In this document: positions 1 through 52,440 of the stretch, in pieces | Layout: each line of letters opens with the position of its first letter | Numbering within the stretch: position 1 is the first letter of the stretch | Program-made: the position numbers and the translations under genes | The notes under the pieces: model-generated | Databases searched by the model: none | The model's input: only the letters and a program-made list of their open reading frames with translations | Told to the model about the DNA's origin: nothing | Assembly (NCBI GenBank): GCA_044892525.1 | Contig: CM097885.1 | Span: forward strand, 189,100,001 to 189,164,000 | Direction of reading: 5' to 3' | DNA from: Schmidtea polychroa | Taxonomy: Eukaryota | Length of the DNA: 64,000 nt

Positions 1-3000
1 GTTAAATCTTTGCTTGTGATCTGAGGTTCTTTATAAATTTTTATATTTCTCGGTAACTTCTGAGCTTCCTCTGATTTGATTTTTGTTAATTTTCCCAATT
101 TGGTTTTGGGCTTTATTTCAACGGATCTTGCACTATAATTCGCTATTCTAACTGGTACTGACTTATTTTGGACTTTCACTACTTCATCACACATAGGCAC
201 ATCGTATTTTTCAACCAGCTTTTGATTTGGCTCAAATATGTACTCCTCATCTGAGATCCTCATAACATCTGCATAGTATATTACTTCGCTTTTTGGTGGT
301 ACTTGCAATGTTTGGTTTAGAAATACCTCTCCTACTTCAGGCACTACTTCACCCATTTGTCCTTTTATTAGTTTTCCAGTTCTCAGATCAAGAGAGATTC
401 CATGTAGTTGCTCCATGACATCCATGCCAATAAGACATTTTACAGGACTTTTTCTCATCACTGATACCCAATGAATTATTTCTTGATCTCCAATTATCAG
501 TTTAACTTCTAATTTTCCAACAATATTTAGTGCATTATGTGACATTGATTTAATAATGTGATTCGTTGGTTTTATTTTGGCTTTCTCCTGATACGTCAAG
601 AAACTTTCCGCTACTATAGTATGACTTGAGCCTGAGTCTAATAAAGCTTCCACTTTTCTCTTGTTAAACTGTATGTTTATTCGAGGTTGTTTTCCTCCTA
701 CTACTGTTGTCATTAGTGCATAGCTGCATGGTAGACCAAGCATATTCTTTCTTTCAATTTCAGCACTCGTTGGTTCAATCTTCTCTAATTCTATTGTGAT
801 ATTATCGACCGATTTCATCTCCTTTAGTTTTTCACTTGGATATACTGGTGCTGTTGGTCTAAATGTCGGGGTATACCATCTACTAAGAGTATCAATCCCG
901 CTTAATTTTGGCATTGGTTCAAGCAAGAACCTGGACTCTGGCTCTACTTTACTCTTTATTACACTTTTTCGAAAGCATTTATGCTCCGATTCCCCGTTGT
1001 TGTTATCATCATTATGATCGTCGTTTTTATCTTCCGACTGACACGTAGATTCCTCACTTTTCCGGCCATTTCTTAATTGTGCCCTTACTCTTGCCATTTC
1101 TTTAAATTGATGATCTGTAATAAAGAATCTAGCCAACAATGGAATACAACCAATAACTAATTTCCATGACCATCCCGATATTGCGTATATTCGATGTACT
1201 GACAACATTTGCGACACTACCACCTTTGCCGTTATCATAATCACGTAAATTCCAATTAAACCTGCACATGCTTGTCCCAAAAACATGAACTTGCCCCAAA
1301 TCTTTTCCATCGTTTTATATGTAGCTCGTTTGAAATGATCAGGTGTTAGCAAATTTTCGTAATTTACTGTTCCTTCTCCATTCGGTAATACTGTGTCAAT
1401 CATTTCTGAAATTATCCGTTCCTTTTTGGATGGAAACAACAAATTCCTTTGAGCTTCTTCGATATCTTCGCTTGCATACAAGCCCATTTGTGCCATTTTG
1501 TTTAGTGATGTGAAATTTATCAGGTATTCTAAATTTGTTAATTCTAGTTTGTCTGGAGTCTTGACCCCACGATAATCTGGTAAGGCTATCCATGAATCTG
1601 TAGCTAATCGGTATAAAGGGGCTAATAATCGATTGCATTGCAAAAGTTTTGGTTTAGTTTGTTCATCAAGCAAGATTCTAGTTATCGGTTCCATAAATCG
1701 TACCTTTCCCCCAAAGCTTACTGGTAATTCATTCGTACATTTTTCGTATTTGGCAATTTTCACTGTGACTTCTTTGCATTTGTAACTGTATAATGCTTCT
1801 CCAAATATTCTCGCAAACACTCCATTTTCTGATATTAGCATAGGTGCTACTAAATTTGGATTCGTAATTGCCATCGCCATCCGATTTCGGAGAATCTCTT
1901 TATTCAACTTACAATCGTTTAGAATCATTTCTCTATATACATTTTCCATGATGTTTTGACTAAAATGAAACAAATAATCAATTTTATTATTAAAATAATG
2001 AGTAAGTTTAATGTCATCTCTGTGAATTTTAATTTTTGCTTCTTCCACAACATTTCTAGACACGTAAACACCTTCATAATTTGTTACATATACCATTCGA
2101 CCACATTTATTTGTGATTTCCTTTTTTATAAATCGCATTCCATCTGCTGGTAACGTAGACATTAAAACTGTTCCCATTTGCTTTGTCCATACTGGGGTTG
2201 ATTTAATGGTATTATTTGGTCTATAATTCATATTGAAATTATCTGGTTTATCTCTAAACTGTTCTCCTACTAGCTCTTTAAAGTTCATAGTTTTTAAGTG
2301 CGCTAAATTACACTTATTTGTTTCTACATTATAAACAAGAATCGATTCCCCTGTTTGACAATGTGTTTGTTTCATATTACAGAATGGATGAGTTTGTAAT
2401 TTTCCCGTATCATCATCGAAAGCTCCTTCGAACTCTCTCAACTCCGTGAGATACTCTTCTAGCACCACTGTTTGCTGAATAATTTTACCGTTCATTTTAT
2501 ATGGTTCACCTTCACAGTCGCCATTTGCTTTCATAACTCCCTTTACAATTATTGTTTCTCGTATTCTATGGTTCAATTTTGCCTTTAAACGAATTTCTGG
2601 ACTTATTTTTAATTCCCCTGTTTGAAATGCTGCTAGACAGTTTTCTGGAAGCACCTCGACTGGCCTAGGTATCGCATGCATTTTTATGAGTGACGTATGG
2701 CTCCATTTACCACAATAGAATACAAATGTTGTATGTTTGACAATACACTCTCTCACTTGAGTTCTTCGCAGATCAGACTCTTGATACACATAATATTTTA
2801 CGTCATTTTCTATTTTTAAACTGCTCGGATACGCACCTGGGCATTCCGACATATCTACTACCGAATAAACTTTTCCCATTTCAGTTTGGGAACAATCGTA
2901 CGCAACTAAAGATGATGTCTGTGTAATTATTGCACAAAACGTAATCACCATAAACATCGCCCATGGAAATATCATAGTTTTTCTTAGTTCTGGCTTAACT

Positions 3001-4760
3001 CTTTCATTTACTCGTCTTTGGGGTGGACTCATTTCTTGCTTCTCATTTTTCTTTTCTGTTAGAGATGAACACAGTGTTTTCCAACCACCTTTTTCGTTTA
3101 CCCAGCTCATTAAATATTCGTTTACTAGCCGGGCAGCGATGTCTATCAAATTTTCTAACTTGTCTGACCTTGCGAACGTATGCGTTCCAATTTCTAAAAC
3201 AACATAAGTTAAAGCTATTATTATAACTTCCTTATTAATTTCATTTTTTGCCAAATTTTCAATTACTGATCTCTCGCAAAATGTATTCTCTTCGCCAAAT
3301 TTCTGCATCACTTCAGGAAGCCTATTCTTCATCTCTTTAACTATTTCTTTCAGTTCATCATCTACCTCTACTTCTATGTCGAACATTGGATATACTGCTT
3401 TAACGAGATGTTTCAACATTTTCTTAGTTTCGTCGACGTCCTGTTCTAGCCTCACTAAATATTTCTTTATTTCATATAAAGTTCTAACTTCCTTATTTTT
3501 GATTTCACCATTTATTTCGCCTTCAGGTACAAGTGGCTCTCCTTGTACGTCTGGTTCTGTGGACTGATCTTTGTTATCAGGATCTTTTTGCTCATTATCA
3601 CTAACGATTTCATCAATTTCTTTATTTCCCTTAACTGTTTCCTCTTGTTCCTCTGTGTCAGGCTTGTTAGACTCAATATTTACTTCTAAACTCACTCCTT
3701 TTACTACGACTATATGGTTCACTAAATATCCCACTCGTCTGTCTCGGATCAAATATCCGTTTTCATCCAGCTCTTGTGGTACACACCCACAATCATATAG
3801 GTATTCATCATCGTCAAGTTCTTCACCTTTGTACATTACTATAATAATTCCATCTTTTCCCAGCGTTTCAGCCGCTCTCTTCCGCAATTTTCGGACCTTT
3901 GCACACCAATGCTCGTCTACATATTCCGTTTTGCCATATCCCTCATAATCTAATGCTATCAAAAATGGCTTTAACTCTACTCTTGCCTTTCTGAGCTCCT
4001 TGCCCAATCTTTGCAATAAACTTCTTAATAACTTGGCATATCTGGTTTTCACATGTAAATATGGTCGTATTGCATTCACTATTTTTAGTTTATCGTTTTC
4101 CTCCATTTCTAATTTCTCAATAATCTGTAACTTCTCATTGATTTCATCTTCATCTCCAATATATAACGCATCATTTAATTCCTCTAATATCTCCCTTGAA
4201 TTCCTTTTGTCTATTATTTTACTACTCATTATTTCATCACTAGTAATTACATTTTCCATTTTTAATTCATTTGTACTCCCTGGTATAAATCCACAATCTA
4301 CCAAAAATTCGTCATTTTCTAACAATCTCTCATTAAATCTCAACTCTATCATGCATCCTTCCTTTTTTTCTTTTAATTTATTCTTTAAATCATTTACACA
4401 ATCATTTGCCTCACAACGACAACATAATACACTTTTATCAATCTCATTTACTACTTCCACAAAGATGGAATCTAACCCTGTTTTCTCTCTCAAAGCTTTT
4501 CCAAATATTTTCATTAATTCTTTAATTTCTTCTTTATACTTTGGATTCATATTATAGTAGTTAACGCACAAGCTAATTACACTTTTTATCTTTCTCGTAT
4601 TCAAAGATATTTGACTTAATTCTCTCAACGATTTGATCACTTTAGCCGACTCTATTTCATTATTTCCAATTAGTTTTTCGATTCTGGTCATTATCATTGT
4701 TGCTTTTTCACTTTCTAAATCATCTTTTATAACTCTCCTTTTCGACTCTTTTTCATTCAT
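1..4760 (-). CDS. Partial polyprotein (>=1586 aa, no stop before the window edge): Ubl x2, Bcl-2-like domain, signal/anchor, chuvirus-like glycoprotein with TM, aspartic protease, post-protease dUTPase-fold-like spacer
   Basis: Hand translation of every 60-nt line from ATG 4760 to base 3 shows no in-frame stop. Begins MNEKESKRRVIKDDLE. EYLMSWVNEKGGW (W553/W560); MIFPWAMFMVITFCAIITQTSSLVAYDC (aa596-623); FYCGKWSH; CTNELPV...FMEPITRIL; WGKFMFLGQACAGLIGIYVIMI (aa~1155); KVEALLDSGSSHTIV (D1375, nt 636-638); CLIGMD; VPPKSEV...VPVRIANYS...KTKLG. Absent from the ORF track because it lacks a stop codon. Confidence 0.92.
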   Translation of the reverse strand, partial: MNEKESKRRVIKDDLESEKATMIMTRIEKLIGNNEIESAKVIKSLRELSQISLNTRKIKSVISLCVNYYNMNPKYKEEIKELMKIFGKALREKTGLDSIFVEVVNEIDKSVLCCRCEANDCVNDLKNKLKEKKEGCMIELRFNERLLENDEFLVDCGFIPGSTNELKMENVITSDEIMSSKIIDKRNSREILEELNDALYIGDEDEINEKLQIIEKLEMEENDKLKIVNAIRPYLHVKTRYAKLLRSLLQRLGKELRKARVELKPFLIALDYEGYGKTEYVDEHWCAKVRKLRKRAAETLGKDGIIIVMYKGEELDDDEYLYDCGCVPQELDENGYLIRDRRVGYLVNHIVVVKGVSLEVNIESNKPDTEEQEETVKGNKEIDEIVSDNEQKDPDNKDQSTEPDVQGEPLVPEGEINGEIKNKEVRTLYEIKKYLVRLEQDVDETKKMLKHLVKAVYPMFDIEVEVDDELKEIVKEMKNRLPEVMQKFGEENTFCERSVIENLAKNEINKEVIIIALTYVVLEIGTHTFARSDKLENLIDIAARLVNEYLMSWVNEKGGWKTLCSSLTEKKNEKQEMSPPQRRVNERVKPELRKTMIFPWAMFMVITFCAIITQTSSLVAYDCSQTEMGKVYSVVDMSECPGAYPSSLKIENDVKYYVYQESDLRRTQVRECIVKHTTFVFYCGKWSHTSLIKMHAIPRPVEVLPENCLAAFQTGELKISPEIRLKAKLNHRIRETIIVKGVMKANGDCEGEPYKMNGKIIQQTVVLEEYLTELREFEGAFDDDTGKLQTHPFCNMKQTHCQTGESILVYNVETNKCNLAHLKTMNFKELVGEQFRDKPDNFNMNYRPNNTIKSTPVWTKQMGTVLMSTLPADGMRFIKKEITNKCGRMVYVTNYEGVYVSRNVVEEAKIKIHRDDIKLTHYFNNKIDYLFHFSQNIMENVYREMILNDCKLNKEILRNRMAMAITNPNLVAPMLISENGVFARIFGEALYSYKCKEVTVKIAKYEKCTNELPVSFGGKVRFMEPITRILLDEQTKPKLLQCNRLLAPLYRLATDSWIALPDYRGVKTPDKLELTNLEYLINFTSLNKMAQMGLYASEDIEEAQRNLLFPSKKERIISEMIDTVLPNGEGTVNYENLLTPDHFKRATYKTMEKIWGKFMFLGQACAGLIGIYVIMITAKVVVSQMLSVHRIYAISGWSWKLVIGCIPLLARFFITDHQFKEMARVRAQLRNGRKSEESTCQSEDKNDDHNDDNNNGESEHKCFRKSVIKSKVEPESRFLLEPMPKLSGIDTLSRWYTPTFRPTAPVYPSEKLKEMKSVDNITIELEKIEPTSAEIERKNMLGLPCSYALMTTVVGGKQPRINIQFNKRKVEALLDSGSSHTIVAESFLTYQEKAKIKPTNHIIKSMSHNALNIVGKLEVKLIIGDQEIIHWVSVMRKSPVKCLIGMDVMEQLHGISLDLRTGKLIKGQMGEVVPEVGEVFLNQTLQVPPKSEVIYYADVMRISDEEYIFEPNQKLVEKYDVPMCDEVVKVQNKSVPVRIANYSARSVEIKPKTKLGKLTKIKSEEAQKLPRNIKIYKEPQITSKDL
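1110..2975 (-). other. env: Chuvirus/Jingchuvirales-type (class III fusion) envelope glycoprotein domain within the polyprotein
   Basis: Hydrophobic leader then AYDC; VRECIVKHTTFVFYCGKWSH; GDCEGEPY; DCKLNKEILRNRMAMAITNP; GVFARIFGEALYSYKC; KCTNELPV; MEPITRIL; QCNRLLAPLY; GLYASEDI...LLFP; TM plus SGWSWKL tail. By recall this Cys/motif series matches chuviral G and retroelement-captured copies. Confidence 0.85.
3050..3430 (-). other. Bcl-2-like helical domain within the polyprotein
   Basis: SVIENLAKNEINKEVIIIALTY...LENLIDIAARLVNEYLMSWVNEKGGWKTLC aligns by eye to Bcl-2 BH1-BH2 ([22 protein letters not shown]...[21 protein letters not shown]). WxxxxGGW is present; the NWGR motif is absent. Confidence 0.65.
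3690..4466 (-). other. Two ubiquitin-like (beta-grasp) domains within the polyprotein (~4250-4466 and ~3690-3965)
   Basis: IFVEVVNEIDKSVLCCRCEANDCVNDLKNKLKEKKEGCMIELRFNERLLENDEFLVDCGFIPGSTNELKM and ...KVRKLRKRAAETLGKDGIIIVMYKGEELDDDEYLYDCGC follow the ubiquitin pattern IFV...TIENVKAKIQDKEG...[28 protein letters not shown]. Confidence 0.6.
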
Positions 4761-6181
4761 TCCTCTTGCGACTCATACATCATGTGATTATTGTAGTCCT
4801 CTTCTGATTCAAACTTTGACATCAATCGATCCAAACGTCGACCCATTTCTCTCACTTCGCTTTCAATTCTTTCATTAAAATTATCTGGCTGAATAAAAGC
4901 TACATTATCCATCTGCGGTTTGTCACTCTGAAACCTAATCGATTTCTTTAATATGGGCCTTTGGAATTTATCCATATTTCTTGGACATGATCTAGCCATG
5001 TGTCCATAACTTCTGCATGAATGACATTGAATTTGTCCTTGTAGATTTACTTTATCTCTCTGCGGTGATGGTGATGTTGATCTTGATCTTGACCTGGCAA
5101 AACAATTTCGTGACACATGCCATTTTCTTCCGCAATTAAAGCATTGTAAGTTATCATTAGTTCTCTGCTCATTAATGTTCGCTTTAGTGAAACTTTTCGC
5201 ACCATTTCCTTTTAACCAATCAGGCCACATTTGCCTTGGACTCCGTTGTACATTATTTTTGGACCAGCATTGATTGCTGTCATGTCCCATTCTTTGGCAA
5301 TTATCACACTGAATCGGAATTGGGCTTCTCTGTATTCTATTTTTAAACCAGCATTGGTTAACATGGTGTCCAATCCTTTGGCAATGACTACATTGGATGG
5401 GACCTTCCTTTCCATCTATTTGAATATCTGTTGACTTGTTCGACTCAAATTTGGATCTAAATTTTGGTGATGGACTACTTGTTTGTTGAAAACGATTGTT
5501 TCTAATTGGGGTTACTGATCTTTCGCTTGCGCCTGAGATGACTGCAAACGACTCTGATTTTGACTGTGTGCTTTTTAAATTTAGCTCAATTTTCATTGCC
5601 TTTTTGATCAATTCATCAAAGTCATTAAAATCAACATAGCATAAAGCCTTTTTAATTTCTTTCTTTACTCCTGACAAGAATTGATCCTGCAATAATTCTT
5701 TTAACTGCTTTGCCATCTCGGCCTGTTCTGGTTTCACTTCGAACGCTTTCTTTGCAAGAGTTGATAAATGATAAGCAAACTCACTTACCGATTCCTCTGG
5801 CTTTTGTACGCGGTTATAGAATTTCTGTCGCATTATCCGTTTGATATCCCCTCCGATTAATTTCGTGGCTAAAGCGTCTTTCAATTTGGTCCAGTCATTT
5901 GCTACTATTCTTTTATCAATTTGTTGCCACGCTTCTCTGGCTGCTCCTTTTAGGTATAGCGGTAATCCTTGCACCATTATCGATTGGCTCCATCCATAGG
6001 CCGTCGCATACATATAGTAATCTGCCATAAAATCGACAAATTCCAGCGGATCTCCACCGTACTGATCCACAGGTAGTTTTTGACAACTCGCATAATCATT
6101 GCCTTCCTTGCCGTTGCCCACCGTGGACACAGGTGTTTCATCATTGTTATTTGTATTATTGGTTAGTCTTTGGGTACTCAT
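4757..6181 (-). CDS. gag: Gag (capsid plus four CCHC zinc knuckles), ~474 aa from ATG 6181 (track ORF starts at 6259 on a non-ATG codon)
   Basis: LPLYLKGAAREAW, RVQKPEESVSEFAYHL, QDQFLSG; knuckles CSHCQRIGHHVNQC, CDNCQRMGHDSNQC, CFNCGRKWHVSRNC, CHSCRSYGHMARSC; stop TGA at 4759-4757. Confidence 0.93.
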   Translation of the reverse strand: MSTQRLTNNTNNNDETPVSTVGNGKEGNDYASCQKLPVDQYGGDPLEFVDFMADYYMYATAYGWSQSIMVQGLPLYLKGAAREAWQQIDKRIVANDWTKLKDALATKLIGGDIKRIMRQKFYNRVQKPEESVSEFAYHLSTLAKKAFEVKPEQAEMAKQLKELLQDQFLSGVKKEIKKALCYVDFNDFDELIKKAMKIELNLKSTQSKSESFAVISGASERSVTPIRNNRFQQTSSPSPKFRSKFESNKSTDIQIDGKEGPIQCSHCQRIGHHVNQCWFKNRIQRSPIPIQCDNCQRMGHDSNQCWSKNNVQRSPRQMWPDWLKGNGAKSFTKANINEQRTNDNLQCFNCGRKWHVSRNCFARSRSRSTSPSPQRDKVNLQGQIQCHSCRSYGHMARSCPRNMDKFQRPILKKSIRFQSDKPQMDNVAFIQPDNFNERIESEVREMGRRLDRLMSKFESEEDYNNHMMYESQEE

Positions 6182-6553
6182 TAAATTCTCTATTAGTGTT
6201 TGGCTTCTCAATTTATAAAATGATCGGGTCAACACAGGCTTTACTCGTCTAAAATTCAAAGTGTTACAATTACAAAATTTACCTTTCGTTTTAATTTTGA
6301 CTTTTCAACAATCAATCGTTACAAATTTTTCCACTTTGCTTCAATTATAAAGTCACCACTTTAATAATTCTCGAATAATGTTCACCACTTTCAAATAAAC
6401 GTTTCACTTCAATATTTATTTATTTAATTATTATTATCTTTTTCCAAATTTTTTTCGATACTTTACAAATCTCAACAAATTTTCACCGACCTTTTTATTC
6501 CTCGGTATCACTCAAATATTATCACAATTTCAACAAGTCTTCACCGACTTTTG

Positions 6554-6575: not shown

Positions 6576-7485
6576 TGTTGGGTTTTTAATGCAAGTCGGT
6601 ACTACGGTCTGACTCCTTTGTGTTCTTTTCCAAATAAATAAATAAATAAATAACCCAACACAAAATCTTTATTGACACTGATGCAGTTACACTTTTACAC
6701 TTGTATTAGTTCACTCACACTTGATACAATCAGGTTTTGTCTGCACTTTTCAATTTGCCAACAAATCTCACGCAGGGGTAGATCTTCCAACGGGAGATAT
6801 CCCTTTCTGGTACGTTCGATCTTTTTAAATGGTTTAATTTCTACTAACTTTAATATTTCCTTTTTCGCTCTCGTCAAACTTCTATTTTCTTTTCTTCGAC
6901 CAACTGGCATTTTGTTTTCTTGCCAGTTGCTTTTATACTCGCTTGGTAATTGACTTTATTTTTGCCAATTATTTTTGGTTTTATTTCCCCCCGGGCTTCC
7001 TCTTGGAGGTCTAATTTAATTGAAGGGAATTTGTTCATTTTCTTTGACGGCGCTTATTACTTTTTATCAGGCTAAATTAATTGCCTTCCCAAAATTGGAT
7101 TTCTCCGGCTAAATTAATTGCCTTCCCGAAATTGGATTTCTCAATTCGCTCGGGTTTTCCATTGTATCGGGTTTCCCATTAGCTCGGGTTCTCCATTAGC
7201 TCGGGTTTCCCATTAGCTCGGGTTTTCCATTAGTTAATTAATTTTTAATTAATTTTTGTTTTTTGTAATTTATTCCTTTTAGGGACCCCCCATTGATTTT
7301 ATTTTATTATAGCTGAACTCGTCTCATTATTTAGCATCCGCCCATACCAGTTTCCCCCAGAAAATATTCATTTTTTAAAATTTTTGATTTTTAATTAATA
7401 TTTTGTACTTTAAGTTTTTATTTTGAATTTGGTGTTTTTGTCAATTTTCACCTCATTTTTGTGCCTCTCTTGTTGAACCCCAACA
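6576..7485 (-). repeat. 5' LTR (~910 bp) of the env-bearing Gypsy element
   Basis: 7-bp inverted termini TGTTGGG/CCCAACA; adjacent PBS; internal short tandem repeats (two ~37-bp units, about five 17-bp CTCGGGTTTCCCATTAG units); colinear homology with the solo LTR at 19769-20607. Confidence 0.88.
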
Positions 7486-7559
7486 ATTTTTTTGGAGAGG
7501 CAGTGTGGTTTTGGCGCCCTTTCTCTACAATTATTTTTGATGTTGAGTAAATAGAAACA

Positions 7560-9792: not shown

Positions 9793-10647
9793 ATGAACAA
9801 ACCTGCTGAGACAGCTAATAAACAAATCAAATGGTATTATGGTGGCATATCGAGCACATTGGCCATTGGTGCAACACATCCTTTAGATTTAGCCAAAGTA
9901 CATTTACAAACTTCAAAAGCTCAATCGAAAGGATTAATCTCGGTATTTATAAAAGTAATCAAGAGTGATGGTGTTTTGGGTTTGTATAACGGTCTTAGTG
10001 CCAGTATTCTCCGCCAGATAACTTACTCTTTCCCTAGGTTCGGACTTCATGATTGGTATAAAAATACAGTATCAAAAAAACGAAAAGTAACAGTCTTGGA
10101 AAATGTTATCGCTGCAGGTTTCGGTGGTGCAATTGGAGGTATAACTGGAAACCCTGCCGACATGATTAATGTTCGTATGCAAAATGACATGAAACTTCCA
10201 GAAGCATCTAGGCGAAATTATAAAAGTGCTTTTCATGGATTGTTTCAAGTTGTTAAAAATGAGGGTTTTAAAGGATTATTTAGTGGAGTGACAATGACTG
10301 CAAATAGAGCTATCCTTATGACAATTGGTCAAGGTGCTGGTTATGATCAAATGAAGTTAATTCTCCTTTCGACAAATTTATTTGACGATAATCCAGCAAC
10401 ACATATATTGAGTGCGTTTGGTGCAGCCGGAATAGCAACGTTTCTGACACAGCCTTTCGACGTTATGAAAACCCGATTAATGAATGCTCAAGTTGGTCAA
10501 TACACGGGACTGGGACATTGTGCTAAAGATATTTTATTGAATGGTCCGTTGGGTTTCTTTAAAGGAATAGTACCAGCATTTGTCAGAATAGGACCTCACA
10601 CAATTTTGTTATTCATCATTAAAGAACAATTGATAAAATACTTTTAA
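9793..10647 (+). CDS. slc25a10: Mitochondrial dicarboxylate carrier (SLC25A10/DIC-like), intronless, 284 aa
   Basis: WYYGG...THPLDLAKVHLQT, LRQITYS, NPADMINVRMQND, RAILMTIGQ, QPFDVMKTRLMN, FVRIGPHT; three carrier repeats; ATG-to-TAA intact; AATAAA downstream (~10696). Confidence 0.88.
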   Translation: MNKPAETANKQIKWYYGGISSTLAIGATHPLDLAKVHLQTSKAQSKGLISVFIKVIKSDGVLGLYNGLSASILRQITYSFPRFGLHDWYKNTVSKKRKVTVLENVIAAGFGGAIGGITGNPADMINVRMQNDMKLPEASRRNYKSAFHGLFQVVKNEGFKGLFSGVTMTANRAILMTIGQGAGYDQMKLILLSTNLFDDNPATHILSAFGAAGIATFLTQPFDVMKTRLMNAQVGQYTGLGHCAKDILLNGPLGFFKGIVPAFVRIGPHTILLFIIKEQLIKYF

Positions 10648-12274: not shown

Positions 12275-12850
12275 ATGGCTTCGATTAATACAGATATTTA
12301 CTATGATCATAAATGCAACAGGGACGTTCACACATCTCAGGTTGGTAAATGTGTGACGTGCAATGATGGATTTATTGAAAGAATTGAATCTGATAACTCA
12401 ATGGAAATGATGACGATGCCTTGAATGTTTTTCATCTCATTTGTCATATTCTTGGTGGAAGTACTACAAACGAAACTGATGGTTCCTTTTTTATTACTCC
12501 AAGAGATCCTGATAACAGAAATAGTGTTTTTGGCCAACTCATATCAAATTTATTTGGTGGATTGCTGCCGCTGTATTTTAGATCCGATTCGTCAGATTAC
12601 ATATTTTCAGATCAAAGTTTCGACAATTTTGTAACGAGTATTATGAATCAATTTGAACAGAGTGGTCCTCCGCCAGCAAATGAGGCAGATATTGAGAAAT
12701 TACAAGTCAAGAAAATCACCGCAGCTAATGATACAGGTTCCATTTGTCTGTCAGATTATGAGGTGGCCGATGAAGTGTATGAGTTGCCCTGTCAGCACAG
12801 ATACCCTGTTCAGTGTCTAAAAACGTGGATGATTAAACATGGTAGCAGAG
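12275..12850 (+). pseudogene. RNF126/RNF115-like E3 ligase fragment (Zn-ribbon plus truncated RING-H2), intronless, frameshifted
   Basis: MASINTDIYYDHKCNRDVHTSQVGKCVTCNDGFIERIE; [37 protein letters not shown]; [35 protein letters not shown]; RING breaks before the last CxxC. Confidence 0.8.
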
Positions 12851-12857
12851 CGTGGTT
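12840..12857 (+). promoter_or_regulatory. Primer-binding site, initiator tRNA-Met type
   Basis: TGGTAGCAGAGCGTGGTT preceded by AACA; matches the metazoan tRNAiMet 3' complement pattern TGGTAGCAGAGnnTGGTT. Confidence 0.8.
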
Positions 12858-13182
12858 CCCTTCAGGGGGCTACGCACCAATGTTGCAGTGGAGACAGCCC
12901 TGGCTGATCAATGGTGAATTAAATATTTTATTTACATTTCATTTTCATTTTATTTGCATTGCATGTATATTTCATTTTGAAGTTAAATATGTAAAATCAA
13001 CCATCCTTCCTTCCTTATCGAGCGTGAAAAAGTGCTGCTATGGGCCCCAGCACTCTTTTAAAGTGGGTAGCCAGGGGAACAGTTTAAAGAAAAAGAAAAT
13101 CAAAACCTCAGCGTTTTTGCGAGCTAAGTCAAGGGTGAGGGCGAGCAGGGTAATGGGTTTTGAGTTTCGATTGAAAAGTAGG

Positions 13183-13409
13183 AAGCAAATATTTATCAAA
13201 ACTCTTACTGGTAAGACAATTACTCTTGACGTTGAATTGAATGACACGATTGAAAATGTAAAAGAAAAAATTCAAAGCAAAGAAGGAATTTAGGAAAATT
13301 ACAAACGTTAGTCTATGTGGGAAAGCAATTAGAAAATAAAAGAATATTGAACGATTATAGCATACAAGTAGGTTCGACATTTCATTTGTCACTCAGGCTG
13401 TGCGGTGGC
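13183..13409 (+). pseudogene. Ubiquitin domain fused to the N-terminus of BEL/Pao Gag (one stop, one frameshift)
   Basis: [36 protein letters not shown]...[34 protein letters not shown] continues in frame into [25 protein letters not shown] (gag). Confidence 0.85.
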
Positions 13410-24334: not shown

Positions 24335-27300
24335 ATGGCATCTTCAAGAAACTTGGGTAGCCAAGACTTTTTTTGTGAAAGTTGTAATAAACAATTCAAA
24401 TCAGCGACAGCATTAATATCTCATAAAAATTCAAAATTTCATTTAAAGAAATTAAATTTATTAGATGATTGTAATTCCAAAATTTGTCCAAAATGTAAAC
24501 AAAGATATTTAAATCGAGGATATGAAAATCATTTTAAAAATTGTATTGGGATTGAAAGAATTCGAGAAACATTTCAATGTTTTAAATATCATGAAAGCTT
24601 TGAAACTTAAATAGAATTAAAAGAACATGCTGAAGAATGTCAAGATGAAGATGATGATCATGAATGGGATGAATTTAATCATACAGATGAATTTGGGAGA
24701 TGAGGAAATTGGAGCACAAGCAATTTCTTCTTACATTAGAAAAAATGAAAATGAAATAAAAGAATCCATGGAAAATGCTATAAAAAGATTTAAAGGTGTA
24801 AGATATAATATTATAAAATATAGAATTTGTATAAAAGCAAAATTTTGGCGAGGTGGAGATATAGATCAACAAAATCAAATAGATCCAAACTTTCTACATT
24901 TTAGAATTCAAATTAATTTCAAATATTTGTATTCCATGAGAGCATTTAAAAAAACACTTATAATAGAATTATAATAGAATTTCAAGAAAGTTAAGAACAA
25001 TCTGAACAAGAATTAGGAGAATCAAATTTAGTTTTCTTCTCTTCTAAAAATATAGAAATAGATTATTGGAAAGGAAATCCACCAATTCCAAATCTTGGAT
25101 TCCCACACCACAATCTTTGAAAAACTCAAAATATATTATAAATGTTAAAAATAAAGATAACAAGTTTTTTTATGGGCAATATTATCTGCTTTATATCCCC
25201 AAGAACAAATTCCTTGTAGAATTAATAAATATATACCACATGAACATGCAATTTTATTTTGGGATGGTTTTGAACATCCCATGAAAATGGAACACATTCC
25301 AAAATTTGAAAAATTAAATCAACTTAGAATTAATATTTATGAATTGGATGGAATCAAGGTTAAGCCAATTTATATTTCAGATCAAGATGAGAAATCTGAT
25401 AATGTAAGTTTTATAACAATAAATTTATTAATTCTAGAAGAGATTATGGAAGATGAATTAAACACTCACTTTGTTTGGATAAAAAAATTTCAGAAAGTTT
25501 TATCAGAAGAAAATCATCATCTCATCGTGTTCAAGGACATACTTGTGAAAAATGTACATATTATTCAACTTCTGATGCTGTAAGAATAAAACATGATAGA
25601 ATATGTAAAGATGGTGAACCAGCATTATTAAAAATGCCAAAAAATCTTGAAATGAAATTTAGAAATTATTCAAGTTTATTACGTCCCCATGCTTCAATAT
25701 ATGGAGATTTTGAAGCAATTAATATACCAAAAAATTTATACAGAGAATATGAAAAGATTATAATTAAAAAATATTTAATGAATGATTGGTGTAGATATCG
25801 TCGAGAGAATCAAAATCAAGGTTCAACTTTGAATCAAATTTCAATTGAAGAGAAAATAAAAAAATTTCTTGAAGGAAATGGTATACGATCAACAATAAGA
25901 TTAACTAGACAAGTTCCATCTGCATATCATTTATTTGTCAAAAGTAATTATCCAGAAATTATACAGGATCAACATTTATCACATCGAGGAACTTCTGCAG
26001 AGGATACTTTGAATCATTTTGTTCAAGATTTAAATTCTATAAAAGATGTTCTCAAGAAAAAAGTAGAAATTGATTTTAAAATGAATATATCGCGACAACA
26101 ATACCAAGAATATGAAGATTCTACAATTTCTTGGATATGTAAAAAAGGATTTATAGGTTATAAAAATATTGATAATCCAAAAGTTATAGATCATGATCAT
26201 TTTAAAAAATTTAATAATTTTCGAGGGGCAGCTCATAAAGATTGTAATTTGAAATGTAAAAAACCAAAATTTATACCAACTATATTTCATAATTTATTTG
26301 GATATGATATTCATCTATTTATAAAACATTTGGCAATTTATGCAACATGAATTTAAAGTTACTGCCTTAACAAAAGAGAAATATAAATGTGTAGAATATG
26401 GTTGTCTAAGATTTATAGATTCTCTAAATTTCTTTCCAATGAGTTTAGATGCAATATCAAAAACAATGTCAAGTCAAGATTTTAAATATACAATAAAACA
26501 TGTTTTGCAAAGACACAACATTCCAATTGAAGAATACAAAACATGTTTAGCAAAAGGAATATATTCATATGATTATATTGATTCATTTGAAAGATATAAT
26601 GAAACAGAATTACCACCACATGATGATTTTTATTCAATTTTATCTCAATCAAATACAACAGATGAAGAAGATGCTCGAGCTAGAAAAATGTGGCAATTAT
26701 TTAATTGTCAAAACATTGGAGAATATACTGATGTTTATCTAAGTCTTGATGTTTACATTCTTGCAGATTGTTTTGAAAAGTTTGTACAAGTATTCCCCCT
26801 AAAAGCATATAGTTATATAACTTCACCATCTCTATATTAGGATTCATTATTATATGAATTGTTTTCTGAAGATCAAATAATAATAAAATTATTATCAGAT
26901 GTCAACATGTTCAAAATGATTAGTAATAATATTCGAGGTGGAATTAGTTCTGGAATGGGAGAAAGATATCTACTTGCTTATACTGAAAATCTTGCTTATG
27001 AAATTTTAGATTTAAATAAAAATCCAGGAAAAATTGTTGAGATTAAAATTTAGAGGATTATCGAATAATAAATGAATGCATGATTAATCCATGTTATATT
27101 TTTTATATTGATGCAACTGCTTTATATTCGGGAATAATGACACAACATTTACCAATTTCTTCATTTGAATGGATTGAGGATATTAACCAAGGTTTGACTT
27201 TGAATCAAGATTCTCATTCAAATCAAGGTTTGACTTCAAACCAAGCTCTAATTAATTAAATATTAAATACTCCAAAAGATTCAGACGTAGGATATTTTCT

Positions 27301-30509: not shown

Positions 30510-31530
30510 AAGATTTAAATCAAGACTTTACTGTGCGGTATCAACACTCGTATATTGTCAGGTTGAACCTGTAGAGTATTCCAAGTGTATTATTGTCTTG
30601 GCATGTTTGAATATAATTTATATATGGGAATATATTTTCATTGTTTTCTATATTAAACTCCATTCTATTTACTGGATTCAATGAAAAGATGGATCTATTT
30701 CTTTGAATCCAATTAAAATATATCTTGGTCGATATGCTAAATTTGCTACCTTTACTGAGTATGTTGAACCTTCTCTCATGTCAAATACACTACAGATTCT
30801 ATTTAAATAATTAACATTTATAGATTTGTTGGAATTTAATCTTTCAAGTAATTTAATTTCAGCGTGTGGATTTAATGTCCATTCGGGTATATGTAATTCA
30901 ATTGTTGTTAATTTTAATTTACCTTTTGTATCCTTGTCTCCATAAAATAACACTTTATCATCTATTACTCTATTACAAAGTAATTCTATGAAAACATTAT
31001 GGAGTATACGATTATAGTTTTGAAGGAATCCGAATAAATATTTCAATTCGAAATAACCTTCACATTTTTTAGATTTATAAAGTTGAACTCGTTTATGATA
31101 ACCATAATTTATATCTAAGCCATCTTTATCTAAATCATCTTTGTTAACATCAGGGATCCAACCTGTTAATTAACCATATTCATTTTTGCAATCACAACCA
31201 GTCAAAATAAAATTTAACATTGTAGAATATACACCTGGATCCAAAATATTTTCAACTTCTGAGGGTCCTAATTTTAATCTCATGTTGGAGAATAAATTTG
31301 GGAAGAAATTATTTTCTAGGGTTATATCTTTGTTTGCTTCAATCTCTAATTCAATTTTGTAATATAATTTTGCATTACAAATATCTATAGGGTTTGATGT
31401 TTGAAGAGATTGAAAAACTATATTACCTCCACGATTTAAATTTGAAATGCAACCAGAGGTTGGACAAATTTTAAGTACATCATTTTTCTTAATTTCATGA
31501 ATAAACTGTTTATTATAATCAAGATTTAAT
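30510..31530 (-). pseudogene. Polinton major capsid protein (double jelly-roll) remnant
   Basis: CPTSGCISNLNRGGNIVF...LENNFFPNLFSNMRLKLGPSEVENILDPG; LKLTTIELHIPEW...RPRYILIGF. Confidence 0.65.
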
Positions 31531-36822: not shown

Positions 36823-37893
36823 TCAAATAAACTCTTGTCTAGCAAGAGCTTTTTCAATATATTTCCTCATGTTAGCAAACCAACCACCAAAATCGATTCC
36901 TTCATTATCCAGTGTAGTCCGTATTCTGGTTTTCAATTCATCTCGATTTGCAGCCGAAGGATGAATGGCAAATAGCACCGATTTAAAATGGCTAAAGTAC
37001 TCTTCAATCGGATTTAACTGGGGGGAGTAAGGGGGTAAAAATCGAAAATTAATATTATTAGACTCCAACAGACTAATAACAGTTCTGGAATGGTGAAACC
37101 TACAGTTATCCATTATCAATACGTCATTCGGATTAGATCTAAAATGGCTCAACAACTTTTCCTCAATAAAACCACAAAAACTTTCTCCGTTAAAAGCACC
37201 ATCTTTGATTTCATAAGAAACTATTCCAGATTTCTTAATTGCCACCATACAACTGATATTAGTACCACGATTGCCTTTAACGATTTTGTAGGCTTTTGAA
37301 TTTTTGGGCGAGTAACCGTAGTTCCTGGTTTGATGCAAATTCAGTCCGGTTTCATCCAAAAAAACCAAATGATCATTCGAGATAAAATTTGTTTCACGGG
37401 CGTATCTTTGCCTTAGATCGATATTTTTAGGGGTGTTTCGTTCCTGTGGAATTCTGACCAGTCGTTTCCTGGTATATTCCATCTTTTTAAGTATTTTAGA
37501 AACAGCACTCGAGCACCTAGTTATTCCGGAGTGTTGCAACTCTTCGGATAGTTCGGGCTGGGTAAATGAGGCATCTCTTTGTAAAATTTGGCTTATGTTG
37601 GATTTCACGACGGACAAATCTGCCATTTTCCTTCCTTTCTTCGGACCGCAGATTTCTTCGTCCGTTGCGCCGTCGCATAGTTTTCCGACCAGGTTATATG
37701 CGGTCTGCAGACTAATCTCTTGCTCGGAGGCGATTGTTTTTGTATCGGTATTTTTTTCAACCGATTTTCGGACTCGTTTTATGATTTCGAGCGTAACAGT
37801 TTGCCGCCTTTTTCGAACCCTGACATCTTGGCGCTCTTCGGAGGTTTGTTCAGTGCTGTTGGACATGGTTGAGGGATTTAGTTTTGAATGCAT
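36823..37893 (-). CDS. DD34E transposase, 356 aa (or starting at the second Met)
   Basis: N-terminal HTH; LVFLDETG, LIMDNCRFH, FLPPYSPQLNPIEE; 34 residues between the second D and E. Confidence 0.93.
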   Translation of the reverse strand: MHSKLNPSTMSNSTEQTSEERQDVRVRKRRQTVTLEIIKRVRKSVEKNTDTKTIASEQEISLQTAYNLVGKLCDGATDEEICGPKKGRKMADLSVVKSNISQILQRDASFTQPELSEELQHSGITRCSSAVSKILKKMEYTRKRLVRIPQERNTPKNIDLRQRYARETNFISNDHLVFLDETGLNLHQTRNYGYSPKNSKAYKIVKGNRGTNISCMVAIKKSGIVSYEIKDGAFNGESFCGFIEEKLLSHFRSNPNDVLIMDNCRFHHSRTVISLLESNNINFRFLPPYSPQLNPIEEYFSHFKSVLFAIHPSAANRDELKTRIRTTLDNEGIDFGGWFANMRKYIEKALARQEFI

Positions 37894-37911
37894 AAATTCC
37901 AGTCTTAAAAT

Positions 37912-38207
37912 ATATCGATGTAGGTTTTTAAAATTTCAATATAAGTTTTTAGATATATTGTTTCAAGATTTTAAATATATTATTTCAAGATTTTAAATAT
38001 ATTGTTTCAAGTTTTTACATATATTGTTTCAAGATTTTAAATATATTATTTCAAGATTTTAAATATATTATTTCAAGATTTTAAATATATTATTTCAAGA
38101 TTTTAAATATATTATTTCAAGATTTTAAATATATTATTTCAAGATTTTAAATATATTATTTCAAGATTTTAAATATATTATTTCAAGATTTTAAATATAT
38201 TTCGTCA
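37912..38207. repeat. Right TIR: longer inverted array of the same 22-bp unit
   Basis: TATTTCAAGATTTTAAATATAT repeated; different copy number and variant order from the left end. Confidence 0.9.
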
Positions 38208-46960: not shown

Positions 46961-47089
46961 TGAACTATCAAGGGCATGCGTGTTGTTTAATCATGTTAAG
47001 TTTATGTCGACGCCTATGGACAAATTAGAGAGCTAAAGGAGCGTATACTGCACAAGTACAGTGAGTGGAAAATGCAAAATGAAAGGGCA

Positions 47090-48630
47090 AAATTCTAGAA
47101 GATTTACAAGACACTATATGTCGGGAATAAAGATGAAATTAATACAAGTATCAACTTCATCATGAGCACTGAGATGGATCGAGGTATGAAAGAAAGATTG
47201 TTTGAATGCATTTTACCTTATACCAATAAACCGACAAGTTATCTTGCGAAGTTAAAAGAGGTAATCCGAAAGTTAGGACACGATTATGGGGTGGCGGACA
47301 ATAATGCAAAGTCTTTGATGATAGCGTTGAATACTTGAGATCAAAGAATTGAATATTATCAGGAACATTGGAGCGTAAAGGTAAAAAAAATACGATAAAA
47401 AGTAGTGGAGATATTGGGTAACGAAGGAATTATCGTGTTGACGTTCAAAGGACGAGTTGGGTGATGATGAATACTTACTGAATTACGGATGCAATCCAAA
47501 TTTTATTAATATATATGCAACAAAGCAAAGTGATGAAATGAAAAGGGATGCCGTTTTGGCCTCCGTATGAGGAAACGGATAACGATAGTGCAGACAGGAG
47601 CTAACACGAATTGCGTTGAATAGAGATGTAATATTGAGAGTATTAGCGTATATAGTTGTTGACAATTCAAAATCGTTAATAACGAAAGCCACTAAAATGA
47701 CGAATGAATATTTGATGAATTGGATAACAAATAATGGCGGATGGAAGAATTTAATACAAAAAGAAAAGCCCAAAATTAGAGACAGTAAGAAAAAAGGGGA
47801 AATTGGCATTTCCGTGGTTGATGATGTCTGTTATCATGTTATTGGGAATAATAAACACTAGAAACTACTGCTTCCAAACTGAAATTGGAAGAGTATATTC
47901 TTTAGTGGATGTAGCAGTGTTCAGATGCATAACCAGTAAAGTTCATAGTGAAAAATCCCGTAAAATATCACATGTATCAAGAATTTGGTTTCGGCGAGCA
48001 AATGTGAGGGAGTGTACAGTCAAAGGAACCACCTTTGTATTTTATTGCGGTAAATGGGCCCACTCATCAATGGTGAAAATGCAATCGATAACTAGCTTTC
48101 CAAACGGGACAACTGAAAATTAATGCAGATATCAAATTGCAAACGAAATTGAACCATATAATCCGTGAGACGGTGACAGTGAGAGGGATGATAATGTCGA
48201 ATGGCGATTACCAAGGAGAACCATACAAAATAGACTTTGCGATAATCGGCAAAGCCTTTGTCAGAGTATTTGTCAGAACTAAGAGAATTCGATGGGTCAT
48301 TTGATGACGATACGGGTAAACTACAGGCGGGCCCGTTCTGGAACATGAAACAATCTAGCTATCAGACAGGGGAATCAATCTTAGAGTATGATGTCGATAC
48401 GAAAAGGTGCAATTTAGTGCAATTGAAGTCAATGAGTTTTAAAGAAATAACGGGAGAACAGATCAGGGAAAAGCCTGAGAAAGTAAGGATGGATCCAGCA
48501 ACAAGTGCAACAACCAGAATCATCCCTTTACGGATGAAGGACAATCCAATCGTGTTAATGTCAATCTCGGCAGAAGATGAGATGCGATTTCTAAGAAAAG
48601 ATACGAAAACAAAGTGTGGACGAATTATAA
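47090..48630 (+). pseudogene. Decayed, divergent copy of the Ubl-Bcl2-like-Env polyprotein (5' part)
   Basis: ILEDLQDT/LYVGNKDEIN; EHWSVKVKK...GNEGIIVLTFKG..LGDDEYLLNYGC; EYLMNWITNNGGWKNL; MAFPWLMMSVIMLLG; VRECTVKGTTFVFYCGKWAHS; EYLSELREFDGSFDDDTGKLQ: same order as in 4760-1900. Confidence 0.88.
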
Positions 48631-49391
48631 AGGGATATATGTTAGGTTCTGATCTGGTAGAAAGATTCTTCCTAACACAGATTATATCTGACTCCAAAGA
48701 TATAAAATTTAAAATATGTGCGCTTAGATATATAAATAATTTAATATGGATTAAACAAGACGTTTATTTTCTAAAGATTTATTGTGCATAAAAAAAACTA
48801 TATAATAAGTAATAATTGTGTTTCTCCAATAATCCCGCTAAATACTATAAGAAAAGAATATCGGTTGTCCAAACCGTCCTCAGGTATGAGGCAAATGCTG
48901 GATCTAATTGCTCACAGCACTGTATTTGAAGTTAAGGACAAGATGAGGGAGGGATTATCAGAATTTTTCGCTATCGTCTAGATCAAGATTGATCTAGCGT
49001 TTCCTAATATTTGACCCTCTCGATAACGAGTAAGGCAGGCAGAAATGCTGCTTCTCGTGGTCGGGTTGAGCAATTTAAAGTTAAATATAAGAAAATCAAG
49101 TAACCTTATGGTTAAGAAATTCTTTTCTTTCGACAAAGTGGAAATGCTTGTACAAAATTTGTTATAATTTAGTGGTTATGACTATATTATTATGAATATA
49201 TTCATTTTCTATGGCAACAGCTGGTATTAATCTAGTGAGTTAATTCTCGTTGAGTTATATTGCTTTTTAAGCACAGCTGGTTATTCTCTGAACATTGCTG
49301 TTTAATCAATATTGATTTTCAGCTTAGAACAAATTTTATTTCCTTTTCTTAACTAAAAGTCCATACGTATTTATATTAATTTACTAATTAT

Positions 49392-52025: not shown

Positions 52026-52440
52026 ATGTTACATTCGGGAGATCTAAAATTGACAAATTACTTCAATAACAAGATAGATTATCGGTTTCATTTTGGTCAA
52101 AATAACGTTGAAAATGTATACCGAGAAGTTATTATAAACGACTCCAATCTCAATAAAGAAATACTCCAAAATCGGATGGCAATGGCTATAACCAATCCCA
52201 ATTTGGTGGCCCCAATGTTGATTACAGAGAATGGGGTGTTTGCCAGAATTTTTTGTGAAGTACTTTTGGCTACAAATGTAAAGCTGTGCCAGTCAAACTG
52301 ACAAAGTATGACCAATGCTCCAATGAATTACCAGTAAATTTAAATGGAAAGCTGCGATTTAAGGAGCCTGTGACACGAATCTTACTGGAATATGATGTGA
52401 AACCTAAAGTCTTACAATGCAATAGAATTGTTTGACCATA
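52026..52440 (+). pseudogene. 3' continuation of the decayed chuvirus-like env
   Basis: DLKLTNYFNNKIDYRFHF...NKEILQNRMAMAITNPNLVAPMLITENGVFARIF; then NELPV and EPVTRIL: near-identical to 2000-1650 in translation. Confidence 0.9.

Follow-up and report, generated by a model that had tools for sequence, protein, structure and literature searches.

Burro and GYPSM1, giant Ty3/gypsy retrotransposons from planarians (PMC6431247, citing Jurka 2007 and Grohme 2018), are among the closest described systems to the locus reported here. According to the passages of PMC6431247 that deal with them, they encode Gag, a Ubi/SUMO-like domain, a BCL2-like motif following it, env in frame between gag and pol (that is, between BCL2 and the protease, PR) and reverse transcriptase (RT). 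In the same passages Arkhipova & Yushenova (2019) proposed that the Burro BCL2 meddles with apoptosis and flagged the proposal for experimental testing. The window, which here means the whole stretch of 64,000 nucleotides analysed (Schmidtea polychroa, GCA_044892525.1, contig CM097885.1, positions 189,100,001 to 189,164,000), contains on its minus strand part of a young, high-copy Burro-type Ty3/gypsy element. In this element a predicted Bcl-2 fold is followed in frame by a viral-type fusion glycoprotein, G, and the hydrophobic segment between them is very probably the signal peptide of G, which probably also anchors the Bcl-2 piece in the membrane of the endoplasmic reticulum (ER).

Two further systems are similar in part. 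[quoted passage not shown] Smed_errantivirus_1 from this catalogue has the same gene order and env type, and its ectodomain closely resembles the window G by eye; the catalogue differs in that neither Bcl-2 nor Burro is mentioned in its main text. In hepatitis C virus (HCV) the upstream cytosolic protein, core, ends in the signal of the envelope protein E1 and is ER-anchored after the signal-peptidase cut, but the virus and its proteins are unrelated and the HCV anchor is then clipped by signal-peptide peptidase (SPP), as outlined in the relevant part of PMC5402940.

The order BCL2-then-env in Burro is already published (PMC6431247), in passages that do not mention a signal peptide, Bcl-2 homology (BH) motifs or topology. 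What the present analysis adds is a confirmed fold, the loss of BH1 and BH3, and a signal-peptide junction conserved in five families; these additions do not establish a system of a new kind. No prior statement of the shared signal and anchor was found in literature searches, and Grohme 2018 may already describe the window family.

The genome (781 Mb, 1012 contigs) contains at least 150 copies of the window-family region at 98–100% amino-acid identity. The match is free of stops in 147 of 150 copies, and in 17 of 150, counted by eye, it lies within a 3437-aa open frame; in a copy with such a frame Gag reads on to RT, RNase H (RH) and integrase (IN). An intact copy spans ~17.4 kb, and its 865-bp long terminal repeats (LTRs) are 99.65% identical, which indicates that the family is young. 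Intact copies encode, in one frame, Gag, two successive units of a helical bundle and a ubiquitin-like (Ubl) domain, a spacer, the Bcl-2 domain, the signal, G with its TM segment, PR, RT, RH and IN. The window family thus has the Burro-type architecture, a single open reading frame (ORF) Gag-Ubl-BCL2-env-PR-RT-RH-IN between LTRs, and also the layout of gB-type GAG-ENV-POL errantiviruses, with a gB/chuvirus-type env between gag and a Ty3/gypsy pol.

The window copy itself is defective, with a frameshift at the gag junction and a truncated pol. Its minus strand holds a 1590-aa open frame (3–4772) 3' of the gag frame, in which the Pfam order is ubiquitin-like (weak), Bcl-2, Monjiviricetes fusion glycoprotein and retroviral protease. 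The features around the junction are as follows.

3057–3455, minus strand: Bcl-2-fold domain, α1–α8 (ORF aa 440–572), from profile, model and structure matches
3081–3119, minus strand: BH2 motif EYLMSWVNEKGGW (ORF aa 552–564)
3225–3236, minus strand: degenerate BH1, N-K-E-V for N-W-G-R (aa 513–516), from the profile alignment to Bcl-xL and from alignment A2
2979–3056, minus strand: variable polar/basic linker; the distance from GGW to the cut is 42–70 aa across families
2910–2978, minus strand: internal signal peptide of G, hydrophobic core (h-region) and polar c-region, and putative ER anchor of the Bcl-2 piece, from the (-3,-1) rule and the start of PF24664
1215–2909, minus strand: G (Env), Monjiviricetes fusion glycoprotein, chuvirus-like and of the HSV gB type (PF24664, E 2.7e-88)

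Further families, A', C, B and D, were found beside the window family (A) by searches with PF00452, PF24664, BIR, MATH and the DNA of a relic copy. The ORFs of B are near 3050 aa, while D has an ORF of 4791 aa with a MATH domain and a separate BIR ORF, and so matches Burro1. Passages of PMC8532177 report that BURRO1 is de-repressed after smedwi-2 RNAi. The window family differs from Burro1/GYPSM1 proper (MATH, BIR ORF, an ORF near 4,800 aa, over 30 kb) in its length and ORF size, and no MATH or BIR was present in the parts scanned of one copy.

The stretch 3455–3057 is predicted to form a complete Bcl-2 fold. PF00452 matches aa 474–564 over model positions 1–100 (E 1.3e-4, 22.9 bits for the cut-out domain); at 17–23 bits the window domain misses the Pfam gathering score of 31.4 bits, which some family-B copies pass in the genome search at 32–33 bits. 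The profile is matched at E<=1 by 8 of the 9 aligned family members (best 9.3e-7). In the other direction, the profile of alignment A2 finds Bcl-xL at E 2e-4, and a search of the PDB with the single domain sequence was not significant by itself (best E 0.19). The AlphaFold model was built from the nine retroelement rows of A2 only, with cellular Bcl-2 proteins left out against bias, and has six helices with a predicted local distance difference test score (pLDDT) of 81.2 and a predicted TM-score (pTM) of 0.79; the five models range in pLDDT from 81 down to 50. When it was compared with 48,161 PDB chains, rows 1–35 were all Bcl-2-fold proteins, led by trBcl-2L2 from Trichoplax (Z 13.3, root-mean-square deviation (rmsd) 3.0 over 131 aa) and including BAK (Z 13.1), and the first unrelated chain had Z 5.0. 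According to a warning of the structure search, chance alone can bring helical bundles to a Z near 13, and the fold is assigned because of the gap to unrelated rows and the independent sequence support, not because of Z alone. The Foldseek PDB rows listed are all of the Bcl-2 family (best E 5.9e-3, none <=0.001), and in the viral structure library herpesviral vBcl-2s rank first.

This domain had been proposed by the initial annotation, which recognized helices α4–α6 and named two outcomes that would speak against it, a structure prediction lacking the fold and a BH2-like motif not conserved in additional family members. The fold is predicted, it extends to a whole α1–α8 bundle starting near 3455, and WxxxxGGW occurs in four families, with YxxxxGGW in the fifth (D).

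Homologue searches with A2 and with the longer alignment A1 found none, and a search with G as the query returned three fragments. HMMER over 1.84 billion representatives gave two matches, both repetitive with surface-protein-like repeats and judged spurious, and one locus from a viral-contig scan was discarded as a phage-like false match.

The BH2-like motifs are located exactly where they had been reported, EYLMSWVNEKGGW at 3119–3081 on the minus strand and EYLMNWITNNGGW at 47706–47744 on the plus strand in the second copy. GGW is conserved in 9/9 rows of the alignment and the preceding Trp in 8/9. Together with the fold, BH2 is what the domain shares with PF00452 proteins such as Bcl-xL, BAK, KsBcl-2 and A179L. 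It differs from them in lacking NWGR, in its place within a polyprotein and in an anchor apparently borrowed from Env. The absence of NWGR, also noted earlier, is confirmed: the motif is found in 0/9 rows of A2, the NWGR of Bcl-xL aligns to N-K-E-V, the Trp position is occupied by K or R in four families and by Q in D, and the Gly is replaced by D/E/N in all. The BH3 motif LxxxGD was likewise found in α2 in 0/9 rows of A2, inspected by eye. The relevant part of PMC8814693 gives Arg/Lys at the BH1 Trp position of Bfk and Bid and no binding of BH3 peptides by Bfk up to 40 uM, and Bcl-xL G138 variants are described as losing BAX/BAK binding in the corresponding section of bioRxiv 2024.10.02.616265. 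The retroelement domain is similar to groove-less Bfk/BCL2L15 and Bid in its basic residue at this position, and unlike them it lacks the BH3 motif. Since NWGR and BH3 are missing, in the manner of Bfk and Bid, canonical BH3 capture by the retroelement domain appears doubtful, and a canonical anti-apoptotic role is not established.

A Bid-like activation through a caspase site was considered and rejected: B lacks the Asp-rich loops of A, A' and C, and a BH3 that could be exposed is missing. Predicted as a complex with a Bak-like BH3 stretch of the host, the domain scored 0.01 against a mark of 0.34, with the alignment unused; this score carries no weight either way.

After BH2 comes, in all five families, a polar linker whose length varies, then basic residues and a hydrophobic core, and finally a polar stretch that stops three residues before YDC. 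In the window copy the hydrophobic segment (aa 599–617, KD19 hydropathy 1.99) starts 34 aa past GGW, in agreement with the ~35 aa reported previously; the predicted signal-peptidase cut falls between 2910 and 2909, before LVAYDC and not at the AYDC originally given. The junction was compared in eight sequences, six from the window genome and two database fragments, which are related and do not count as eight independent trials. The strict (-3,-1) rule at three residues before YDC holds in 7/8 of them, with differing residues, while each of the other 11 registers satisfies it in 0–2 of 8 sequences (background 4.1%). The features of a cleavable signal (basic n-region, h-region, polar c-region, small residues at -1 and -3) are likewise present, by rule, in 7/8, in line with the cleavable signal suggested before G. 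Moreover, the match to PF24664 sets in where the h-region starts, with profile position 1 in D, 4 in B and 5 in A, and it does likewise in family C. This alignment indicates that the segment is primarily the signal peptide of Env itself; anchoring of the Bcl-2 piece would be a secondary role. A captured Bcl-2 tail is thereby disfavoured, and of the proposal that a Bcl-2 membrane anchor doubles as the Env signal the Env signal is supported, the anchor role being probable from topology.

The segment 2978–2910 is therefore described here as, very probably, an internal signal from a captured viral G gene that directs G to the ER lumen and is cut before LVAYDC. As the frame is continuous, cleavage would leave the signal as the C-terminal end of the upstream piece as well, and it probably stays in the membrane as the anchor of that piece, by analogy with HCV core. 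The uncharged stretch is 26 residues long in the window family and 25–26 in A, A' and C, with KD19 of 2.0–2.4. The C-terminal TM of G (aa 1168–1186) has KD19 2.19, close to the 1.99 of the window segment.

In families A and D the frame continues past integrase into a second signal-like segment and then a C-terminal TM (L126:127–1500, minus strand; L123:5703–7454, plus strand), separated by ~330–370 aa without a Pfam match in A. This stretch may represent a second membrane protein of the same polyprotein, of a kind unassigned by Pfam, and suggests that internal signals are in routine use in these elements.

Between families the G proteins are 35–81% identical and the Bcl-2 domains 18–54%. The ratio of nonsynonymous to synonymous substitution rates (dN/dS) of the domain is 0.19, 0.10 and 0.24 in three pairs, whereas the linker reaches 0.66 and 0.48 in the first two of them; that of G is 0.02–0.04. 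Judged by these comparisons, the Bcl-2 domain is old and under constraint in five families. It also diverges much more quickly than G and the protease, with 55% identity versus 82% for G and 77% for the protease. A D / B / (A, A', C) grouping is shared by the G and Bcl-2 trees, which is consistent with one old capture.

The phylogeny against host paralogues called for by the initial annotation succeeded only in part. The six retroelement Bcl-2 domains cluster (94/96, not starred), but the node that would identify the donor is weak (69/85). The pooled retroelement profile prefers the host gene L042 (34.4 bits; BH2-kept shuffles reach <=23.8), whereas single-family profiles prefer differing donors, L038, L031, a Polinton gene or L042. 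Because of this disagreement and the weak node no donor paralogue is claimed. A common clade with Polinton Bcl-2s is compatible with the data but not demonstrated (p-AU 0.18). L042 (L145:6051–6512) is a host-type Bcl-2 gene with a divergent BH1 and is sister to a Polinton Bcl-2 (82/82).

The second copy in the window, offered earlier as support, does contain the motif. It is a decayed relic related to family C (47075–48746, plus strand) that keeps α5–BH2 (47595–47756), the signal segment and the start of G, and has stops, frameshifts and a deletion of ~490 bp including α1–α4; as such a relic it is weak evidence on its own.

The upstream part of the polyprotein, together with the remaining parts of the element in the window, comprises the following.

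4757–6304, minus strand: gag, retrotrans_gag and CCHC knuckles; out of frame here, in frame in intact copies
4233–4472, minus strand: Ubl1, ubiquitin-like β-grasp (ORF aa 101–180) with a helical bundle before it (PF00240 E 0.0016; model)
3690–3965, minus strand: Ubl2 (ORF aa 270–361) with a second helical bundle before it, of lower confidence (model strands; di-ubiquitin Foldseek E 2e-6)
3456–3689, minus strand: acidic low-complexity spacer, from sequence
402–692, minus strand: aspartic protease (PF00077); pol runs past the window start and is truncated in the window copy
6576–7489, minus strand: 5' LTR of the window copy (approximate), 92% identical to the LTR of another copy

The model of aa 5–371 (pLDDT 70, pTM 0.44) alternates helical bundle, Ubl, helical bundle and Ubl, and di-ubiquitin chains top its Foldseek list, in agreement with the two Ubl domains proposed earlier. 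Ubl1 matches ubiquitin-like domains with Z 12.7 and rmsd 1.8 over 77 aa, the last strand of Ubl2 has pLDDT under 50, and the internal repeat of the two scores 63 against a shuffle maximum of 47. A C-terminal GG is present in neither Ubl1 nor Ubl2. The last 60 aa of the spacer are 33% identical between A and A' (dN/dS 0.43). A candidate protease site between Ubl2 and Bcl-2 was rejected, being more likely the last strand of Ubl2 in the model. In B and D, but not in A and C, an RGRP motif, which we take to be AT-hook-like, precedes the Bcl-2 domain (L062, L067, L137).

The favoured explanation, to which we give about even odds as a whole, combines a polyprotein, a shared signal and anchor and a non-canonical Bcl-2 domain. 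The element would be translated as a single polyprotein from Gag to IN. The signal peptide would send G into the ER lumen, signal peptidase would cut behind it, and Pol would return to the cytosol past the TM of G. The cut signal would persist as the C-terminal ER anchor of the upstream piece, as in HCV core/E1. The earlier suggestion that signal peptidase releases a Ubl-Ubl-Bcl2 protein needs an addition: Gag is in frame with the rest, so that the peptidase alone would give Gag-Ubl-Ubl-Bcl2, and the element protease would have to remove Gag to leave Ubl-Ubl-Bcl2 at the ER membrane, facing the cytosol and in a one-to-one ratio with capsid and fusogen. There, in what we consider an evenly balanced proposition, the BH2-only fold would keep the producer cell alive or dampen ER death or innate signalling through surfaces other than an NWGR groove. 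Groove-less poxviral Bcl-2-fold modulators, rather than Bcl-xL, are the model for such action. A role of this kind is favoured because family D carries IAP (inhibitor of apoptosis) and TRAF-like cargo.

Several observations weigh against this explanation. One B sequence fails the -3 rule, and the uncharged stretch is only 12–16 aa in B and D, with KD19 of 1.35 in D, which fits a transient signal better than a stable anchor. The linker dN/dS of 0.66 and 0.48 in the first two pairs comes from comparisons where dS is near saturation, and in the third pair linker (0.21) and domain (0.24) show no contrast. The model has Z ~13 to cellular multi-BH proteins versus 7.6 to Bfk, 4.9 to Bid and 5–7 to A46/A52/B14. 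The ESM Atlas places family A nearest Bfk and BID at 0.91–0.92, below the recognition mark, and the family-B query there gave no usable match.

A possible, though rather unlikely, alternative is that the signal is transient, clipped by SPP after signal peptidase, so that Ubl-Ubl-Bcl2 becomes soluble or nuclear. The short h-regions of B and D are bounded by D/K, and Pro, Ser, Thr, Asn and Cys occur inside h-regions, residues of the kind SPP prefers. The RGRP motifs before the domain in B and D and the HCV core precedent (in the relevant part of PMC5402940) also agree with this course, while the long, strongly hydrophobic stretches of A, A' and C and the lack, by eye, of a conserved cut motif in the linker do not.

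It is unlikely that the domain is a canonical pro-survival vBcl-2 whose divergent groove sequesters the BH3 of host Bak/Bok and blocks apoptosis. An ER-inserted signal without a basic C-terminal tail would be a poor fit for mitochondrial targeting, for which such a tail is the rule. None of the families retains the BH1 Trp or Gly, and in the model α2/α3 form one helix and α4 is short. On the other side, the closest structures are multi-BH cellular proteins and herpes, asfar and pox vBcl-2 proteins, family B keeps a BH1-like G-V-N-R-D-K-V and has the copies above the Pfam cut-off, and IAP cargo is present in sister family D; vaccinia F1L, moreover, is described in the pertinent section of PMC2836074 as binding Bak without recognisable BH motifs, so that motif loss is compatible with BH3 binding.

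A particle role is improbable in its broader form, in which the fold is a matrix-like or membrane-remodelling layer or is carried as a pre-loaded signalling blocker and not as a BH3 sink, and quite improbable in the structural form, a matrix-like lining or membrane-bending module linking the capsid with the envelope. The single-ORF stoichiometry, a Gag start without Gly2, the lost BH1 and BH3 and the position of Bcl-2 next to the membrane segment in 5/5 families would suit it. However, the domain is joined to the C-terminal, nucleocapsid (NC) end of Gag, which would be the wrong end for a retroviral-type lattice, it diverges faster than G and the protease, and the GAG-ENV-POL elements of other phyla are described without mention of Bcl in the text, as distinct from the sequences, of PMC13524379.

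It is very improbable that most Env comes from a spliced RNA that begins at the Met heading the signal, with the Bcl-2 link mattering only for the full-length product. This Met opens the hydrophobic core in 4/6 genomic sequences (A, A', B1 and D) and is PF24664 position 1 in D, but C and B2 lack it and it can also be read as a leftover from the start of the captured gene. No joint near it was seen among the joints listed for the contigs of four sequencing runs, which say nothing firm on splicing or expression. A neutral passenger, a captured host fragment kept only so that the frame stays unbroken, was already disfavoured and is highly improbable: identity between families is low and motifs are lost, but fold and BH2 persist across families whose G is only 35–42% identical, at a domain dN/dS of 0.10–0.24.

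Other features of the window and genome touch these elements in part. IAP cargo in planarian giant Gypsy elements, mentioned in the initial annotation, is indeed reported in the Burro passages of PMC6431247, and family D has a BIR+RING ORF. The separate ORFs of D are TRAF-like (zf-TRAF+MATH), IAP (BIR+RING) and one with a signal-like start (L121:8169–9629, L122:1–948, L122:3606–4628). Family A has an accessory 473-aa ORF (L125:8302–9720, minus strand) with a weak RNase T/DEDD exonuclease match (E 0.015). Small Bcl-2 genes are scattered through the genome in multiple copies (L053–L058, L046–L051, L059–L060), and some of them seem to have a short intron. Where flanks were read, the genes are close to Polinton/Maverick ORFs for PolB, integrase and capsid-like proteins (L071, L128, L130, L134, L136). 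These small genes keep the BH1 Trp, unlike the retroelement domain. Seven near-identical canonical NWGR Bcl-2 copies, with no obvious in-frame hydrophobic tail, lie within 0.9 Mb (L031–L037, G000:C4). Bak-like (L142, L043) and Bok-like (L039, L041) planarian sequences occur as well. The neighbouring frames in the window are the following.

9793–10647, plus strand: uninterrupted mitochondrial carrier ORF, host gene or retrocopy (PF00153)
12397–13293, plus strand: frame with RING-H2 and partial ubiquitin, directly before a decayed BEL/Pao element at ~13.6–18.7 kb

At 25457–26840, 30678–31169, 36823–37935 and 52029–52438 the window also holds Polinton-like fragments of PolB and of double-jelly-roll type, a DDE_3 transposase of the Tc1/IS630 type and a third fragment of G, which is 58–74% identical to the main copy.

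Viral Bcl-2 mimics are treated as a trait of dsDNA viruses in PMC11209288, in whose relevant text retrotransposons and retroviruses are not mentioned, and the Burro-type elements are a reported retroelement case. The concrete topology proposed here, a Bcl-2 piece ER-anchored by the Env signal with a predicted cut and without the motifs for BH3 exchange, would allow the 2019 suggestion to be examined with small fragments, in an animal well suited to experiments.

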